A stretch of 64,000 nucleotides of DNA from a virus (IMGVR_UViG_3300011189_000006:27135-91134); one strand, 5' to 3'. Shown: positions 1,706 to 22,738, counted from the first letter of the stretch. Notes: generated by a model from the sequence alone, not told the origin. Made by a program: numbers and translations.

Positions 1706-2450
1706 AAAAGTAATACACGGCGACTGTTTTGACTATATGCCAAATATAGCAAGTAAAAGTATAGACTTGATATTTGCAGATTTACCATATGGGACTACTA
1801 AGTGTAAGTGGGATTGTATTTTACCACTAGATAAACTATGGTTAGAATATAAGAGAATAATCAAAGATGATGGTGCTATATTATTGTTTGCTCAGACACC
1901 ATTTGATAAAGTTTTGGGAAGCTCTAATTTAGAAATGCTAAGATATGAATGGATATGGGAGAAAACACAATCTACTGGGTTTTTTAATGCAAAGAAAATG
2001 CCTATGAAATCGCATGAGAATATTTTGGTATTTTACAAAAAACTACCAACTTACAATCCACAGATGACAAATGGGCATAAACCTATGAATTCATATACTA
2101 AGAAAGCATCTGTTCAGAATAAGACAAAAATATATGGGAAGGTAGATAAAGATGTAAGTGGGGGTGGTGAAACAATAAGGTATCCTAGAAGTGTACAGAT
2201 ATTCCCTTCTGATAAGCAAAAAAACAAATTAAATGGAACTATACACCCAACACAAAAGCCGTTAAAACTTATAGAGTTTTTCATAAAATCGTATACAAAT
2301 AAGGATGACTTAGTATTAGATAATGTAGCGGGTAGTGGAACAGTTGCCGTTGCGTGTGAGAACTTAGAAAGAAATTATATAGTCATTGAAAAGGAAATAG
2401 AGTATTATAATATTATATTGAAAAGATTAGAAATTAATAAAAATTTATGA
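1698..2450 (+). CDS. Orphan N6A/N4C DNA methyltransferase (beta class)
   Basis: IHGDC, catalytic DLPY, HPTQKP and SAM-binding DNVAGSGT motifs. Confidence 0.93.
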   Translation: MNKKVIHGDCFDYMPNIASKSIDLIFADLPYGTTKCKWDCILPLDKLWLEYKRIIKDDGAILLFAQTPFDKVLGSSNLEMLRYEWIWEKTQSTGFFNAKKMPMKSHENILVFYKKLPTYNPQMTNGHKPMNSYTKKASVQNKTKIYGKVDKDVSGGGETIRYPRSVQIFPSDKQKNKLNGTIHPTQKPLKLIEFFIKSYTNKDDLVLDNVAGSGTVAVACENLERNYIVIEKEIEYYNIILKRLEINKNL

Positions 2451-2514
2451 AATTACATTAAACATAGTACTTAGTAAAAACTATAAATAAAAACGAATAA
2501 TAAACAAAAACTCT

Positions 2515-3231
2515 ATGAAGGCTGAAACCAAAAAAGAAATAGAGTCATTGAAAAAACAAGCGAGCAAGCTAAAAAAGGAAGTTGATTACTACAACGCCTT
2601 ACAGCTTGCTCTTTGTTAACCCCCGCTAATTTATTTAGGGGGGGGTGGATGACTAAAATTAGTATTAAACGGAAGCTATGGTGCTTTTGCTGCTCCTTAC
2701 TTTATCTTATATAATAACCACGTTGCTGGTACTATTACATCAGAAGGTAGGGAACTTACAAAAAAGATGGACAAAGATAATGAGGACTATTGGTACAAAC
2801 AATGGCACTTAGACTTTGAATTGCATAAAAAACTATACATTGATAATGTAACACAAATATCTGAAAAAGAACCAGTTAGTATATATGGTGATAGTGTAGA
2901 TGGGAAGTCCATTATAAATACACTAGAGGGTAAATTTACGATAAAAGATCTTTATGATAAACAAAATAAATTATCTATCAGAAAAGATAAAGAAGTTATA
3001 CCTGTTAACTTTAAGTCATTAAATTGGACTGATGATGAAAAAATACATTATTCTAAGGTGAAGAATATAATTAGACACAAAACTTCTAAAAAGAAATGGA
3101 AAATAAAGAGTGGTGGTAAGGAAATCATTATAACAGAAGATCATTCCCTAATTGTTTTTAGAAATGGTGAAAAAATGGAAATAAAACCAAAGGAATTAAA
3201 AAGTGGTGATAGAGTTATAATACATAATTAA
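2515..3231 (+). CDS. Family B DNA polymerase middle fragment (fingers/motif B to YGD) fused to split-intein IntN; frame interrupted by a 42-nt insert
   Basis: ATG 2515 MKAETKK...NALQLAL, [insert 2614-2655], KLVLNGSYG...AGTITSEGR...SIYGD, then SVDG intein start. All parts are in the same frame as ORF 2767..3231. Confidence 0.88.
2614..2655 (+). other. 42-nt in-frame coding-gap insert with TAA and TGA stops and a GC-rich hairpin (candidate translational bypass element)
   Basis: CTT|TGT TAA CCC CCG CTA ATT TAT TTA GGG GGG GGT GGA TGA CTA|AAA. Hairpin at 2619-2646. Removing the insert restores Q-x3-K-x3-N-x2-YG. Confidence 0.8.
2893..3228 (+). other. Split intein N-fragment (IntN, 112 aa, Ser1, no Cys)
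   Basis: Block A SVDGKSII directly after PolB YGD; block B IITEDHSL; KPKELKSGD; then stop. Confidence 0.92.
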
Positions 3232-3260
3232 AAAGACTATAGACAGAATAGAACTAGCAT

Positions 3261-3398
3261 ATGAAAAAAGAAAATTATAAACTTTTAGAAATTGAAAGTG
3301 TAGAAGAAATTGGAAGCTTTGAGGATGAATACGTATATGATTTAGAAATGGAAGACGAATCACATACCTTCATAGCAAATGATATATTAGTACATAAC
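3261..3398 (+). other. Split intein C-fragment (IntC, 46 aa, no Cys)
   Basis: Block F EYVYDLEM..HTFIAN; block G ILVHN followed by +1 Thr of TDS. Confidence 0.93.
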
Positions 3399-4577
3399 AC
3401 AGATTCAATTTTTGTATCATTCAAACCATGTATGGATCACTGTGATTGGAAAAATAAAGTATTTAACAAAGAGTATTTAAACTCTATTGATAAACCATTC
3501 ATAGTATTATCAAGAACTAAACTAGATATAGACAATCCAAATTTAGTTGGGAAGATTATATCTAATAATAACACGGAAGATGATATTGATAAATTTGAAG
3601 AACTTTTAAAAAAGCCACATGATTTAATTTTAATGGATGGGTTTTACTCTAATAACAGAGATATAGTAAAAATTGTTAAAGACATGAACTTTGGTGATAA
3701 TCTAATCTGGAACTGGTCTAATGAAGTTGACTTTATCAACGGGATTGACCAAATAAGATTTGCTAACTTCTTCAAACAAATGCTTGATGAACATGCTGAT
3801 AGTTATGGTGTTGAGAATAAAGAAGATTTTGAATTAGAAAGAATATCAGAGTCTATTATCAATATAGCTAAGAAAAAGTATATCCAACACATATTATTCG
3901 AAGATGGAATTCCTTATGAAAGAATGGATTATATATTCCCAAAAGGTGTTGAATTAGTTAGATCATCAACACCCGCATTTGCTAGAACTAAGATTGTTGA
4001 TATTGTAAAGTATTTATTTTCTCACCCAGATACATTTAATATAAAGGATTTGTTAAGATTAGTTAAAGACCTTAGAAATGAGTTTGAATTAGCAGATATT
4101 GATGATATATCAATGCAATCTTCCGTTTCTAAATATGATGTTAAGGTTATAAACGATAAGTCGTTACCACTTCAATTTGTAAGTGGTGCACATTTTGCAG
4201 TCAAGTCGGCAGCACATCACAACTATCTATTAAACGAGAACAAGTCACTACAAAATAAGTACGAGTTTATAAAATCTGGGACTAAAATAAAGTACTATGT
4301 TTGTAAGGATAAAAAGATAACAGGTATGTTTGCTTATATAAGAGGATCTTATCCTATCGAAATGGCACCAGAGATTGACTATGATACACAATTTTCTAAG
4401 TCTATACTATCACCTATAAATTCTATTATAGAGCCACTAGGGATGCCAGAAATAACCAAAAGGTTATCAGTGGTAATGGATATATTCTCTGGGTTTGGTA
4501 TGTCACCAAATAAAAAGAAAAATGACGATGATGATTTGGGAGATATTCACGATGATGGCGATGATTTTCCATGGTAA
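3261..4577 (+). CDS. IntC plus family B DNA polymerase C-terminal fragment (palm/thumb)
   Basis: HN|TDSIFV, AKKKY, KGVELVRSSTP and KIKYYV gp43-like motifs. Confidence 0.93.
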   Translation: MKKENYKLLEIESVEEIGSFEDEYVYDLEMEDESHTFIANDILVHNTDSIFVSFKPCMDHCDWKNKVFNKEYLNSIDKPFIVLSRTKLDIDNPNLVGKIISNNNTEDDIDKFEELLKKPHDLILMDGFYSNNRDIVKIVKDMNFGDNLIWNWSNEVDFINGIDQIRFANFFKQMLDEHADSYGVENKEDFELERISESIINIAKKKYIQHILFEDGIPYERMDYIFPKGVELVRSSTPAFARTKIVDIVKYLFSHPDTFNIKDLLRLVKDLRNEFELADIDDISMQSSVSKYDVKVINDKSLPLQFVSGAHFAVKSAAHHNYLLNENKSLQNKYEFIKSGTKIKYYVCKDKKITGMFAYIRGSYPIEMAPEIDYDTQFSKSILSPINSIIEPLGMPEITKRLSVVMDIFSGFGMSPNKKKNDDDDLGDIHDDGDDFPW

Positions 4578-4584
4578 TTAAAAC

Positions 4585-4622
4585 AAAACTCTTACTATTT
4601 CATATAATAGTAAGAGTTTTTT
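4585..4622. terminator. Inverted repeat, probable (bidirectional) terminator after pol
   Basis: aaaactcttacta...tagtaagagtttttt. Confidence 0.65.
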
Positions 4623-4626
4623 AATT

Positions 4627-4947
4627 ATGCATATAAGGAAGGAAATAATACAAGGTGTTGAATATAATTTCTATAATGATATAGATTATAAAACTGTCTT
4701 AAATCACTGTAACGAAGGCACAGATGGGTTTATGTATATTCTTATTAAAGATTTAGAAGAAGAAAGCAAAAAATTTGAAAGAAGTTCTAAAATAAATAAT
4801 ATATTAAATAATACACCAATACTTACAATTGATAATATAAATAACTCATACATATCATCTTACCTTTATGGGTCAGAAGACATTGATACATTTTTGAGTA
4901 TAATAATAGATAAAATAAGAAGAGATTATAATAATACCAAGTACTAG
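4627..4947 (+). CDS. Hypothetical protein
   Basis: ORF track. Confidence 0.65.
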   Translation: MHIRKEIIQGVEYNFYNDIDYKTVLNHCNEGTDGFMYILIKDLEEESKKFERSSKINNILNNTPILTIDNINNSYISSYLYGSEDIDTFLSIIIDKIRRDYNNTKY

Positions 4948-4949
4948 GA

Positions 4950-5130
4950 GAGTAAACCATATATTTAGTGAACTACTTAACCGCTAAAGGCGGTTAAGTT
5001 TCAAGAGTCAACACTTCCTCTAATGAGGACAGTTCGTCATGATTTTCGGTGGCAGTCCCTGACACCGTATTATTTTTAATTAAAGCAAAGTTTTTAATGT
5101 TTATAGCTGCATTAATATCTCTATCATGTT
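4950..5130 (-). ncRNA. Predicted TnpB omegaRNA (reRNA) overlapping the tnpB 3' end, guide ~TAAATATATGGTTTAC; 5' boundary approximate
   Basis: Known architecture of IS605 right ends; the terminal hairpin is visible in the sequence. Confidence 0.6.
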
Positions 5131-6263
5131 GTGCGTTACACTCCTTACAAGACCACTCACGGTCTTTAAGCGTTAATTCGTGGTTTATGTCTCCACAACT
5201 AGAACAAGTCTTGCTAGAGGGATCGTATCTACCTATTTTAAGTAGATTAACACCATACCAATCACATTTGTATTCTAGCATAGTGGTAAACATACCCCAC
5301 CCAACATCTGAAATAGCCTTGGCTAGTTTTCTATCTTTCATCATGCCTTTAATATCTAAATCTTCTATAGCTATAGATTGGTTCTCTTTAACTAGTCTAG
5401 AAGATTCCTTATGTAAAAAGTCTTTCCTTTGAAAAGCCGTTTTTTCATGTATTTTTGATAATTTCCTTTTAGTACGTACTCCTTTGTTTCTAGAGTATTT
5501 CCTTTGTGTATATTTTAACTTTGATTCATTATTTTTTAAATATCTAGGATTATTGACTTTATCTCCTTTTGAGAATACCATAAAATCTTTAATGCCTAAA
5601 TCTATACCAATGGTCGTCTCAGCTTTTATGACTGGCTTAGGCTTTCTGCCTACACCAGTATCACATGATATGCTTACATAATACTTACCAGTTGGTCTTC
5701 TAGATATAGTAGCGAACTTTATCGCTCCCTTTGCCGCTCTATGCAACTCAATTTTTATACCTTCTCTGAATTTAGGTATGGATAGTTTTCCATCATCAAA
5801 ATATATATTTTGTGGTATATGGAACGATTGCTTACCACTCCATTTAGACTTAAATTTAGGATAGCCACTTGTTTTTCTACGAAATCTTTTAAAAGCATTA
5901 TCTAGGTTTTTAATTGGTGCTTGTAAGGTTTGGCTATTTATTTCTTTTAACCACTCAACATCTTTTTTAAGACCAGGTATTTGCTTTATTAGGTAGTAAC
6001 AATCAAAAGGAGTTGTTTTATTTTCGTTAGAAGAATTGTTTACCTCCAACCCTATATTATATATGAATCTAGCAGAACCAATATGTTTATTGATTAGTTC
6101 TACTTGTTCCTTATTTGGATATAATCTGTACTCAAATGCTCTTAACATAATGTATATATTAATAAATATCCCTTCTCTATTACTATTCTAGATTTTATTT
6201 GTATATTTGCCTACGCCTTACATCACATCGGCTGAAGACCAATGTGTTTCACGACATGATTTT
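4968..6263 (-). mobile_element. IS200/IS605-family element (tnpB only, IS1341-type)
   Basis: Right-end hairpin acttaaccgc-taaag-gcggttaagt ending GTAGTTCAC on the minus strand. Left-end hairpin cacatcggctgaagaccaatgtg (6225-6247). TTAT putative TAM lies just outside the left end. Confidence 0.85.
4994..6148 (-). CDS. tnpB: RNA-guided endonuclease TnpB (IS605 OrfB)
   Basis: HTH AFEYRLYPNKEQ; RuvC D-E-D intact (GIDLG, IEDL, DRDINAA); Zn finger CSSC/CKEC. Confidence 0.95.
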   Translation of the reverse strand: MLRAFEYRLYPNKEQVELINKHIGSARFIYNIGLEVNNSSNENKTTPFDCYYLIKQIPGLKKDVEWLKEINSQTLQAPIKNLDNAFKRFRRKTSGYPKFKSKWSGKQSFHIPQNIYFDDGKLSIPKFREGIKIELHRAAKGAIKFATISRRPTGKYYVSISCDTGVGRKPKPVIKAETTIGIDLGIKDFMVFSKGDKVNNPRYLKNNESKLKYTQRKYSRNKGVRTKRKLSKIHEKTAFQRKDFLHKESSRLVKENQSIAIEDLDIKGMMKDRKLAKAISDVGWGMFTTMLEYKCDWYGVNLLKIGRYDPSSKTCSSCGDINHELTLKDREWSCKECNAQHDRDINAAINIKNFALIKNNTVSGTATENHDELSSLEEVLTLET

Positions 6264-7862: not shown

Positions 7863-9059
7863 TTATAAGTATTTTAAAGCCTCTATCTTCTTGGAATAAT
7901 CAATATCGTTATAATTTGGCTTATATTTGTTTTTAGGAATCCATTTTAAGTCCATGACATCCTTGCTAAAGAAACCCTCTAGGTCAAGGCTTTTGTAAGC
8001 ATTTGGTTTTACCTCACATAGTTTATTTAAGTCCTTAACTTTTGATATTTTATGTAACAATCTAAATGGGTCTTCAACATTTTTTTTATCAACAATATCT
8101 TCAAATAACTTTTTCCATAAAAATACAGGATATCCTTCTATTATTTTTTCTTGTGATTTCTTAAACCCTGCTAGGTCATTATCGAAAAAATATCTTAAAT
8201 CTAAGTCATTAGTTTCTAAGAAGCGATAATCGGTGTTTATACCAACCATACCAAGACTATTAGGAAAAAATAAAGAATCTAAATATCCCTCAAATATAGT
8301 TAGTGGACTAGAAAAGTCTACATTTAATATATTAAAATAGTAAGATAGTTTATTATAGATAACCATCTGATTTATATCTGGTTCTTCAACATTTTCTTTA
8401 CCATGGTTGGTCCATTCTAAAAGGTTTTCATAATTGTATATTTTAAACATTCTTCTTTTCCCCATCTTCAAATTACGAATTTGCATACCAAGAACCTTAT
8501 CATCTCTTTTGTTGAGCATTATTATAATCCATTGAGATTCATTTTCGTTTATCCAAAATTTACCTTGATAAATGTTAGTATGTGCAGAAGGTGGTATTCC
8601 TCTATCTACTAGATACTTATATATACCACTATTAGTAACAATTGGCTTAAAATCTGATATCGGTGTTATATTTTCATTGAATACTCTTTCAAGTTCTGAT
8701 AAATCAATTAAGTCATCAAACTTAGCATCTACAAAATCATTACTATAATCAGTATATGTCATAACACTATCTAGATATTCAATCATTTCTAATTTCTTAT
8801 CAGGATCTATTTGTTCATTATGGTCTTTGGCAAACTTATCTAATGTAGTTTTTTTATCACAGTTAAAGCATACGTAAAAAAGTCTATTCAAATATAAGTT
8901 CCCTCTCTTAGCATTATTATTATTATGACTATCTCCACAGTAAGGGCATGCAAAATTGAATCTATCATTATAATCAATGACTTTTCTTTTCTGTGTGTTA
9001 GAAAATTCTTTACTAACTACCTTCTGTATTATATTTTTTATGTAATCTTTATCCATCAT
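7863..9059 (-). CDS. DNA primase (T4 gp61-like)
   Basis: Zn-binding CPYCGDS...CFNC; TOPRIM FEGYLDSLF and FFDND; DLN. Confidence 0.9.
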   Translation of the reverse strand: MMDKDYIKNIIQKVVSKEFSNTQKRKVIDYNDRFNFACPYCGDSHNNNNAKRGNLYLNRLFYVCFNCDKKTTLDKFAKDHNEQIDPDKKLEMIEYLDSVMTYTDYSNDFVDAKFDDLIDLSELERVFNENITPISDFKPIVTNSGIYKYLVDRGIPPSAHTNIYQGKFWINENESQWIIIMLNKRDDKVLGMQIRNLKMGKRRMFKIYNYENLLEWTNHGKENVEEPDINQMVIYNKLSYYFNILNVDFSSPLTIFEGYLDSLFFPNSLGMVGINTDYRFLETNDLDLRYFFDNDLAGFKKSQEKIIEGYPVFLWKKLFEDIVDKKNVEDPFRLLHKISKVKDLNKLCEVKPNAYKSLDLEGFFSKDVMDLKWIPKNKYKPNYNDIDYSKKIEALKYL

Positions 9060-21130: not shown

Positions 21131-22738
21131 ATGATAAAAAGCAAAGAAGTTAGAATAAAAGCAAATACAAGGAATATTAAAAGATTAAGAGAATGTAAGA
21201 ATAAAGATTTAAAAATAGGGGATTATTTGGATATACCAATATCTTTTCTAACTAGTGGTAGTCATCAGAAAGTTAGTTGTATATGTGATGTATGTGGTAA
21301 AGAGACACAGATAATGTATCAAAAATATATTAAAAATATATCTAATGCTGGTTATTATTCTTGTAGTTCAAAGTGTTCACAAGATAAGGTTAAGAAAACC
21401 TCTAAAGAGAATTGGGGTGTAGAACATTATTCTAAAACAAATGAGTATGAAAGCAGAGTTAAGAAAACTAATTTAGATAAATATGATAACGAATATTATT
21501 TAAGTTCTAAGAAAGGTAAACAAGTTATAAAACAATCTGTTCTTACTAAATATGGTGTTGATAATGTTTTCTCAAATAAAAAGATAATTGATAAAATAAA
21601 GAAAACTAACATAAAGAAATATGGTGTTGATAATCCATCAAAGTCAAATATTGTTAAGGATAAAATAGGTAAAAAAAGTAAAGAAAATTGGATTAAACAG
21701 TATAAAAATCATTATAAAGATAAATATGACTTAGATGTTATATCCCTTGATAATAGTATATATGATATTGTTTGTGAATCTTGTAATAAGACATTTAGTA
21801 TAAATAAATTTTTATTATCAAACAGGCTTCAATTAAACATGGATATATGTACATTATGCAATCCACTACTATCTTCTAAATCAAGCTATGAATCAAAAGT
21901 TTTAAACTTTTTGGAAAGTATATATGATGGTCAGATATTAACAAATACTAGAGGGATAATAAAGCCATTAGAATTAGACTTTTATATCCCAGACCTAAAA
22001 ATAGCTATTGAGTTTAATGGATTATATTGGCACAATGAGATGCATAAACCAAAAGATTACCATTTTAATAAACACAAAATGTGTAAAGATTTAGGAATTG
22101 AATTATTTCAAATTTGGGAAGATGATTGGTTATACAAAAACGATATAATTAAATCTGTTATAAAGAATAAGTTAGGAAAAAATGTAGAGAATAAAATCTT
22201 TGGAAGAAAGTGTAAGGTAGAATATGTTCCTAGCAAAATAGCTAACCGCTTTTTAGAGGATAACCACCTAAAGGGTAGTTCTAAATCTAAGACAAACATT
22301 GGTCTTTATTATAATAATGATTTGGTAAGTCTTATGTCGTTTGGTAGAAATAGAGTATTTATGAATAAGAATAGCATGGATGTTTATGAATTACATAGAT
22401 TTTGCAATAAAATAAACCATTCTGTTATTGGTGGTGCATCAAAATTATTAAAATTTTTTAAAAATAATTTTGATTTTAAAGAACTTATCTCATATTATGA
22501 CAAGTCTTTCGGATTTAAATCTTTCTACGAGAGTATTGGATTTGAATTTATAAAAGAAACTAGCATTAACTACCACTATATAAAGAGAGGTATCAGACTA
22601 CATCGTTATAATTTTAACAAAGCTAAACTAGTAAAATTAGGATATGATCCAAACATGACAGAGAATGAAATAACTAAATCTATGGGAATCTACAAAATAT
22701 ATGGTGTTGGTAATTACAAATATTCAATTAGCAAATGA
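21131..22738 (+). CDS. Free-standing homing endonuclease-like protein (KYGVDN repeats, Zn fingers, PD-(D/E)XK/Vsr-like domain)
   Basis: CDVC and CESC; repeated KYGVDN; ELDFYIPDLKIAIEFNGLYWH; IWEDDW. Confidence 0.8.
   Translation: MIKSKEVRIKANTRNIKRLRECKNKDLKIGDYLDIPISFLTSGSHQKVSCICDVCGKETQIMYQKYIKNISNAGYYSCSSKCSQDKVKKTSKENWGVEHYSKTNEYESRVKKTNLDKYDNEYYLSSKKGKQVIKQSVLTKYGVDNVFSNKKIIDKIKKTNIKKYGVDNPSKSNIVKDKIGKKSKENWIKQYKNHYKDKYDLDVISLDNSIYDIVCESCNKTFSINKFLLSNRLQLNMDICTLCNPLLSSKSSYESKVLNFLESIYDGQILTNTRGIIKPLELDFYIPDLKIAIEFNGLYWHNEMHKPKDYHFNKHKMCKDLGIELFQIWEDDWLYKNDIIKSVIKNKLGKNVENKIFGRKCKVEYVPSKIANRFLEDNHLKGSSKSKTNIGLYYNNDLVSLMSFGRNRVFMNKNSMDVYELHRFCNKINHSVIGGASKLLKFFKNNFDFKELISYYDKSFGFKSFYESIGFEFIKETSINYHYIKRGIRLHRYNFNKAKLVKLGYDPNMTENEITKSMGIYKIYGVGNYKYSISK

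Follow-up and report, generated by a model that had tools for sequence, protein, structure and literature searches.

A stop-containing hairpin insert in motif B of a split phage DNA polymerase gene, a candidate translational bypass cassette of a mobile family

What happens during gene expression to 42 nucleotides that carry a stop codon and a GC-rich hairpin in the middle of the motif B coding region of a phage DNA polymerase? The question is raised by the final 64 kb (64,000 nucleotides, here called the window) of a 91-kb IMG/VR virus contig, which is 28% GC and estimated by CheckV to be 42% complete. The sequencing runs that contain a matching stretch are lake-water and salt-lake metagenomes, and the source phage is uncultured; its relatives include the uncultured huge phages LR745206 (69% amino acid identity) and LR756502 (64%), Tenacibaculum phage PTm1, the Lak phages and others. 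A megablast search of a phage collection with 8 kb of the window gave no match, and pattern scans at the protein level, run on collections of viral, metagenome and genome sequences, returned relatives that were few or distant only. The original prediction held that ribosomes leave a leucine codon before the hairpin, pass over the stop and the hairpin, and resume at a synonymous codon behind it. The layout that it described is present in every particular: the frame opened by ATG 2515 runs to QLAL (ending with CTT, 2611–2613), and is followed by TGT, TAA, the hairpin, GGA TGA and CTA. No in-frame ATG, GTG or TTG lies between that TGA and the YG of motif B, and the first in-frame ATG, at 2767, is beyond the motif. 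Removal of the 42 nt was said to give the canonical PolB motif B spacing, and this agrees with the uninterrupted homologues that we examined; the same spacing is presumably that of the RB69/T4 polymerase.

Judged by its homologues, the gene that hosts the insert encodes the C-terminal part of a family-B DNA polymerase that is split between genes (Table 1). The corresponding 474-aa ORF of LR745206 is intact, with neither an intein nor an insert, and its residues 1–113 match two pieces of the window. This polymerase family is already divided into two or three genes: in LR745206 the N-terminal part lies about 100 kb from the C-terminal part, which is single, and the annotation of PTm1 shows this arrangement in three parts too, with a VSR endonuclease standing between the two halves of its intein. 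The N-terminal polymerase part (exonuclease and motif A) was not found on the 91-kb contig. The split intein of the window sits at motif C (YGD/TDS), with 29 nt (3232–3260) from the stop of its N-terminal half to the ATG of its C-terminal half, and the endonuclease gene of the VSR or Hef-like type that is found between the halves in PTm1 and PA5oct is absent there. Motif C is uninterrupted by an intein in one relative (L026), where it reads SIYGDTDSIF. In another, the MAG scaffold L024, the intein (4300–4730 and 4877–5020) stands two residues further on, as YCDTD/S...HN/SLFVSF compared with YGD/S...HN/TDS in the window, which means either that the intein has a second point of insertion or that its boundary has shifted. 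The gene call for the window polymerase is a 154-aa ORF whose start lies downstream of the start of motif B.

Table 1. Features of the interrupted polymerase locus, in window coordinates.
Feature	Position	Strand	Support or remark
Polymerase, first 33 codons (M...VDYYNALQLAL), part of the fingers helix leading into motif B	2515..2613	+	Colinear with residues 1-33 of uninterrupted homologues
Proposed take-off codon CTT (Leu)	2611..2613	+	CTT in 11/12, CTG in 1/12 distinct site-A cassettes
Free codon TGT (2614-16) and in-frame stop TAA (2617-19), the first 6 nt of the gap	2614..2619	+	
GC-rich hairpin: C5 2620-24, 5-nt loop 2630-34, G8 2638-45	2619..2646	+	-17 to -21 kcal/mol; inner stem covaries
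GGATGA, purine-rich portion of the 7-nt spacer T2646-A2652; TGA in the downstream frame	2647..2652	+	
Proposed landing codon CTA (Leu)	2653..2655	+	CTA in 12/12 site-A cassettes
Resumed polymerase coding, motif B KLVLNGSYG to ...SIYGD (first half of motif C)	2656..2892	+	PF00136 and PHROG DNA polymerase matches
Split intein, N-terminal half (starts SVDG..., stop 3229-31)	2893..3231	+	PF14890, fragment residues 92-188
Split intein, C-terminal half, 46 aa, ends ...ILVHN, opens a separate ORF	3261..3398	+	
Polymerase C-terminal extein (TDSIFVSF... to end)	3399..4577	+	72% identical to LR745206 residues 114-473

Deletion of 2614–2655 produces exactly the sequence of the uninterrupted relatives, and alignment with two of them (L073 and L026) sets the 42 nt apart cleanly, a shared CT being the only source of ambiguity at the edges. 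Coding is taken up again by the AAA at 2656, which opens AAA TTA GTA TTA AAC GGA AGC TAT GGT (KLVLNGSYG). The 48-nt stretch has a predicted folding energy of -17.5 kcal/mol (z = -2.65), and its C5...G5 pattern occurs once in the 64 kb of the window, where 0.02 occurrences are expected, and once in the whole 91-kb contig. A search of 2300–3400 against the Rfam families, group I and group II introns and ribozymes included, gave no match at E up to 1; 42 nt is far smaller than self-splicing introns. The same interval holds no terminator-like site, and the hairpin is followed on its 3' side by GGATGACTAAAA, with no U tract. Frameshifting was rejected, as the +1 frame stops within six codons and the -1 frame runs to 2714 and never returns. 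Directly after the G run, at a start-codon distance from it, ATG 2649 opens a 21-codon ORF that overlies motif B in another frame; this ORF (2649–2714) is probably meaningless.

The insert is not an assembly artefact, since contigs from four runs of four studies all carry it (word depths 9–65). It is also present in three JGI assemblies (L019–L021), with flanks that are identical over about 220 nt. Three alleles were found: that of the window, with 8 G and 42 nt; one with the substitution G2639T, also of 42 nt; and one with G2639T that in addition lacks one G and so measures 41 nt. The 41-nt allele forms a perfect 11-bp stem that includes one G·U pair, and it is G2639T that forms this pair. 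Its flanks are unchanged, and the insert is therefore not read in frame. An insert-less joint was not seen in any of the contigs, a level at which rare variants are invisible.

To place the insert among its relatives we defined the close family as the 116 clusters (at the 90%-identity level) among the best 120 protein hits. The region is uninterrupted (...YYNALQLALKLVLNGSYG...) in 41 of the 116, and also in L026 and L073. The ORF begins at or just before KLVLNGSYG in 33 of the 116 clusters, between NGSY and GAF in 11, and further downstream in 31, among them the 154-aa call of the window; on the evidence of these starts, interrupted clusters appear to make up well over half of the close family. 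A profile search for the short upstream ORFs returned 519 proteins of 18–118 aa. Among the 139 upstream fragments examined, 116 terminate at ...LNGSY, mostly with one more residue before the stop (V in 52, A in 10, F in 9, S in 6, and others; none in 3), and 7 terminate at ...QLA(L). Both of these break sites are found inside one 90%-identity cluster.

At the DNA level, a scan of IMG/VR with IUPAC patterns of the form 'motif + free codon + stop' yielded 19 interrupted and 23 uninterrupted loci. The break site of the window, which we call site A, accounts for 13 of these loci with 10 distinct inserts, or 12 distinct inserts once the window and L019 are included. Site B, which follows NGSY and falls between the Y and the G of motif B, accounts for 6 loci, and L024 is a seventh. 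In some relatives an in-frame ATG or GTG lies within the 3' part of the insert. In a distant relative (L016, near position 3001) homology is lost after the YGY of motif B and comes back at FGNKHAP, which suggests a larger insertion, an intron or an endonuclease gene, at the same hot spot. Four upstream ORFs from the protein database (P0122, P0123, P0128 and P0129) continue past YGAF and break after YFIL(FN); these may point to one more break beyond motif B, although contig ends could also account for them.

All 12 site-A and 7 site-B cassettes are built alike. The take-off codon is followed by a single free codon and a stop in frame; then come a run of five C beginning at base 7 of the gap, a stem of 9–16 bp (-17 to -31 kcal/mol over all cassettes) and a run of G, which a spacer rich in A/U or in purines separates from the last triplet. 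The phase of the cassette with respect to the ORF is identical at two, and probably three, insertion sites. The gap of site A is 39–43 nt long and occurs in all three phases, most relatives having 40, 41 or 43 nt; that of site B is 39–48 nt, likewise in all three phases. At site A the stem has 9–12 bp (-17 to -21 kcal/mol). The free codon there is TTT, GTT, TTG, TGT or, in L054, a second stop, and the stop is TAA, TAG or TGA, standing as the second codon after take-off in 11 of the 12 and as the first in L054. The G run has 5–8 G, the spacer from its end to CTA is 6–9 nt in all 12, and AAA follows CTA. CTT (once CTG) precedes the gap and CTA is its last triplet in all 12 distinct inserts; the same leucine is encoded in uninterrupted relatives by five codons, CTT, TTA, CTA, TTG and CTC. 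At site B the take-off codon is TAT or TAC and the last triplet AAC (5 copies), AGC or GAC, so that the edge triplets agree at only two of three bases; the spacer is 5–8 nt, rarely 13–14, one copy has a UUCG loop, and coding resumes with GGN GCN. The distance from the edge of the gap to the stem differs among site A, site B and L024.

Alignment of the inserts by their C run shows covariation at four inner positions of the stem, each with three to five standard pair types, together with six G·U or U·G pairs, among 12 relatives. This covariation and these G·U pairs indicate that the structure is selected, and selected on the sense-strand RNA. Homologue alignment had been proposed as a way to learn whether the 42 nt are absent or retained with compensatory change, and both occur: the insert is absent in many relatives, and where it is kept the changes in the stem are compensatory. 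The constant 5' position of the C-rich arm was dropped as evidence of orientation; a palindrome reads alike on both strands, and for this reason the G·U pairs alone bear on the strand. The 33 residues encoded upstream of the gap are rich in Lys and Glu in the window, and equally so in insert-less relatives; nothing like a nascent-peptide signal sets the insert-bearing genes apart.

Both flanks of the gap are under strong purifying selection in two insert-bearing lineages, the window and L024. Among the window, L024, L022 and LR745206, with synonymous sites near saturation, pN is 0.22–0.27 vs a pS of 0.70 upstream of the gap and 0.13–0.17 vs 0.65–0.82 downstream of it. On a tree built from the 186 nt after motif B (41 rows, with three states: site A, site B and uninterrupted), at least nine changes of state are required; sister pairs are formed by the window with the uninterrupted L073 (support 99) and by the site-A locus L061 with the site-B locus L048 (support 99). 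Judged from this tree the cassette comes and goes among relatives, and its distribution is patchy. We saw no sharp gradient of the kind that a co-conversion tract would leave; similarity among site-A loci is higher across all of the 60 + 150 nt examined around the site, and because of this the constant CTT...CTA could reflect descent shared with the flanks and not function.

In relatives, a DUF7487 protein (members of PHROG families named 'homing endonuclease') or a GIY-YIG/NUMOD3 protein is encoded 0.4–0.9 kb upstream of the polymerase, in divergent orientation where ORF strands are listed. Such a gene accompanies 7 of 10 site-A, 4 of 7 site-B and 10 of 25 uninterrupted loci. A linkage between endonuclease and cassette was considered and dropped, since uninterrupted loci carry the upstream gene about as often; the upstream slot is a hot spot in this gene family at large, independent of the cassette. 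The window has a DNA methyltransferase in this slot and no endonuclease gene beside the polymerase. About 420 bases past the polymerase stop at 4577 it encodes, on the minus strand (4994–6148), an IS605-type TnpB with OrfB_IS605, Cas12f1-like TNB and HTH domains. Further away, on the plus strand (21131–22738), is a 535-aa ORF whose first 200 residues resemble DUF7487 putative homing endonucleases (tblastn E = 2e-17).

We consider it probable, from the comparisons above, that the 42 nt at 2614–2655 are a programmed translational bypass ('hop') cassette, analogous and not homologous to that of T4 gene 60. The best explanation of the wider pattern would make it one member of a mobile family that resides in motif B of the C-terminal split PolB genes of large aquatic phages. 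Comparative support for the proposed CUU to CUA hop over a stop-containing hairpin comes from the constancy of the edges in all 12 site-A cassettes, the occurrence of all three phases, and the covarying sense-strand stem; that it is the ribosome that does the skipping, and that CUU is the codon it leaves, we infer from these features. The ribosome would read 33 codons up to CUU (2611–2613), where the C5/G-run hairpin 6 nt downstream and the nearby in-frame stop would halt its normal progress. The peptidyl-tRNA-Leu would then release CUU, the hairpin would be passed undecoded, and the same tRNA would re-pair at CUA (2653–2655), the better match for a tRNA with the anticodon UAG. The leucine codon is duplicated at site A, as a CUN pair that one tRNA-Leu(UAG) could read; such a tRNA would depend on wobble at CUU but form a full match with CUA, so that departure from the former and arrival at the latter would be favoured. 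Decoding would restart at AAA 2656 to give ...QLALKLVLNGSYG..., with EVDYYNALQLALK as the expected tryptic peptide of the hop junction, and the product would then be trans-spliced through the split intein of motif C and joined to the separately encoded N-terminal polymerase part.

The free codon varies and is sometimes itself a stop; therefore it is not represented in the protein, and skipping starts before it. The placement of the in-frame stop at a fixed position at two, and probably three, insertion sites speaks for the ribosome as the agent. Some features sit less easily with a bypass. A sense free codon (UUU, GUU or UGU) in the A site should simply be decoded, and why it would not be is unexplained. 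At site B, take-off from UAU or UAC and landing on AAC, AGC or GAC would match at two of three bases only. The steady 6–9 nt from the G run to CTA is likewise unexplained. A role for the G run as an internal Shine-Dalgarno (SD) element, as in T4, is weakened and seems unlikely because the phage's own genes show no such element: over the whole contig, GGAG or GAGG occurs within 20 nt upstream of none of the 80 ORFs of at least 120 aa. TATATA-like motifs occur in many start regions of the contig. Together these two traits suggest a promoter motif particular to the phage and a Bacteroidota-like host that does without Shine-Dalgarno pairing. Seven tRNA genes (Lys, Phe, His, Trp, Arg, Ser and Ser) are clustered at contig positions 8909–9653, upstream of the window; no suppressor tRNA is encoded, and the seven-tRNA cluster contains no tRNA-Leu.

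The same hairpin might instead be removed from the RNA, as a tiny intron-like element cut out by an endoribonuclease of host or phage and resealed by an RNA ligase. We regard such removal as unlikely, although it accounts equally well for the exact restoration of the uninterrupted sequence, for gaps that are free in length and phase, for a sense-strand hairpin that covaries and for a free codon that goes unused. It also needs no codon match, which suits the AAC, AGC and GAC of site B, and the in-frame stop could serve as a safeguard against unprocessed RNA. The distance from the gap edge to the stem, however, varies among site A, site B and L024 in a way that a nuclease measuring from the structure would tolerate poorly, and neither the constant phase with the ORF nor the duplicated leucine codon of site A would be relevant to RNA cutting. 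There is no Rfam match in 2300–3400, and both earlier natural short stop-containing inserts, those of T4 gene 60 and the yeast byps, were reported as translational. To our knowledge, no mRNA splicing of such a kind occurs in bacteria or phages. That the cassettes make up a new class of ~40-nt hairpin mini-introns in phage mRNA, cut and joined by a novel bacterial or phage activity, is by our estimate a shade more doubtful again.

Alternatively, the two coding pieces might never be joined, the gene being in decay or expressed as separate pieces (a 35-aa peptide and a product with a non-canonical start), with function supplied by reassembly of the pieces or by another polymerase. The incompleteness of the contig leaves room for this: it is ~42% complete and the N-terminal part is missing, so that a second polymerase could lie in the absent 58%. 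The family is, moreover, accustomed to a polymerase in two or three genes, and in-frame ATG or GTG codons in the 3' part of the insert of some relatives could serve as starts. We nevertheless judge it improbable. Decay is at odds with the strong purifying selection that acts on either side of the gap in two insert-bearing lineages; with well over half of the related clusters interrupted, it would also have to be rampant and yet never proceed further. Separate expression fails because the window has no start codon before ATG 2767, which is beyond motif B, and because the site-B break would divide the invariant YG between two chains; the huge phage LR745206, for its part, has one C-terminal part only.

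An explanation at the level of the DNA would make the insert an artefact of sequencing or assembly, or else a palindrome that some of the replicating genomes lose, so that an intact copy supplies the enzyme; in our view it has very little probability. Palindromes are unstable during replication and the length of the G run is polymorphic. The insert is nonetheless present in the four runs of four studies and in the three JGI assemblies, its flanking repeat is merely CT, too short for efficient and precise loss, and the plan of the cassette is kept across distant relatives; the insert-less joint went unseen in contigs, which cannot reveal rare variants. Read-through or an alternative code, by which the insert would be translated as 14 extra residues, fits the 42 nt of the window as a multiple of three and is otherwise practically without a chance: it is refuted by the 41-nt allele in the same phage population, most relatives have gaps of 40, 41 or 43 nt, both TAA and TGA would have to be read with no suppressor tRNA encoded, and the 14 residues would sit within the motif B helix. 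Because read-through, separate expression and decay fail, the choice narrows to skipping by the ribosome or removal from the RNA.

Natural long-range bypassing has been proven only in T4 gene 60 and its close homologues, and in the mitochondria of one yeast. Dozens of gene 60-type cassettes are known, all in topoisomerase genes (Manning & Atkins, bioRxiv 10.1101/2022.08.31.505936); the word 'polymerase' appears nowhere in the text of that report, and our literature search found no publication on bypass in a phage polymerase or on these polymerase inserts. For fractured genes, bypassing has been considered only as an unlikely alternative (Dassa 2009, PMC2677866).

The proposed bypass cassette resembles that of T4 gene 60 (50-nt gap; Huang 1988; Bonocora 2011) in that the gap falls dozens of codons into the downstream gene of a split, essential replication enzyme, after 46 codons in T4 and after 33 here. 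Each also has a stop where the gap begins, a stable take-off stem-loop, synonymous or identical edge codons, an A/U- or purine-rich 3' part, a patchy mobile spread, and homing endonuclease genes beside many copies. They differ in host gene, which is here the C-terminal part of a PolB and not a topoisomerase, and they have no sequence likeness. The polymerase cassettes have gaps of 39–48 nt around a C5/G5 core that does not vary; the stop is the first codon after take-off in T4, but usually the second here; there are two or three alternative sites, 8 codons apart; the insert brings no dedicated N-terminal extension or nascent-peptide signal; and the phage seems not to use SD. The endonuclease in the T4 context is the HNH enzyme MobA, whereas DUF7487 or GIY-YIG proteins, not tied to the insert, are found in the relatives here. 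The purpose of the insert may be to protect a homing-endonuclease target; since the endonuclease genes are not tied to the cassette, the idea that the gap shields a nuclease target stays an analogy with T4 only.

The byps of Magnusiomyces capitatus mitochondria, as summarised in the literature (Lang 2014; Nosek 2015), are likewise GC-rich, hairpin-like inserts, of 27–55 nt, in an AT-rich genome; they have spread like miniature mobile elements, break into essential genes at positions that are conserved, and are rich in AU towards the 3' side. There are 81 per mitochondrial genome, in contrast to one copy in 91 kb here; the present case concerns a bacterial virus and one gene region, with a standard code and ordinary stops. 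The fractured and split-intein polymerases (Dassa 2009, PMC2677866; PTm1 annotation) share with this locus a polymerase in pieces, a split intein at motif C and, in relatives, endonuclease genes at the break points. Their breaks, however, are healed at the protein level, and the 42-nt gap needs another mechanism because there is neither an intein nor a start codon behind it.

If the cassettes are indeed hopped, they would constitute a second bypass family, unrelated in sequence to T4 gene 60 and much more diverse. It would comprise hundreds of variants, with two sites, gaps of 39–48 nt, different take-off codons and hosts that probably do not use Shine-Dalgarno pairing, and this set of variants would be a natural mutational series for the way in which a ribosome leaves a message and finds it again. 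If they are removed from the RNA instead, they would represent a new kind of bacterial RNA processing. In either case, polymerase genes of this family are split or truncated by gene callers, as in the 154-aa call of the window, and essential genes of large phages are thus systematically mis-annotated.
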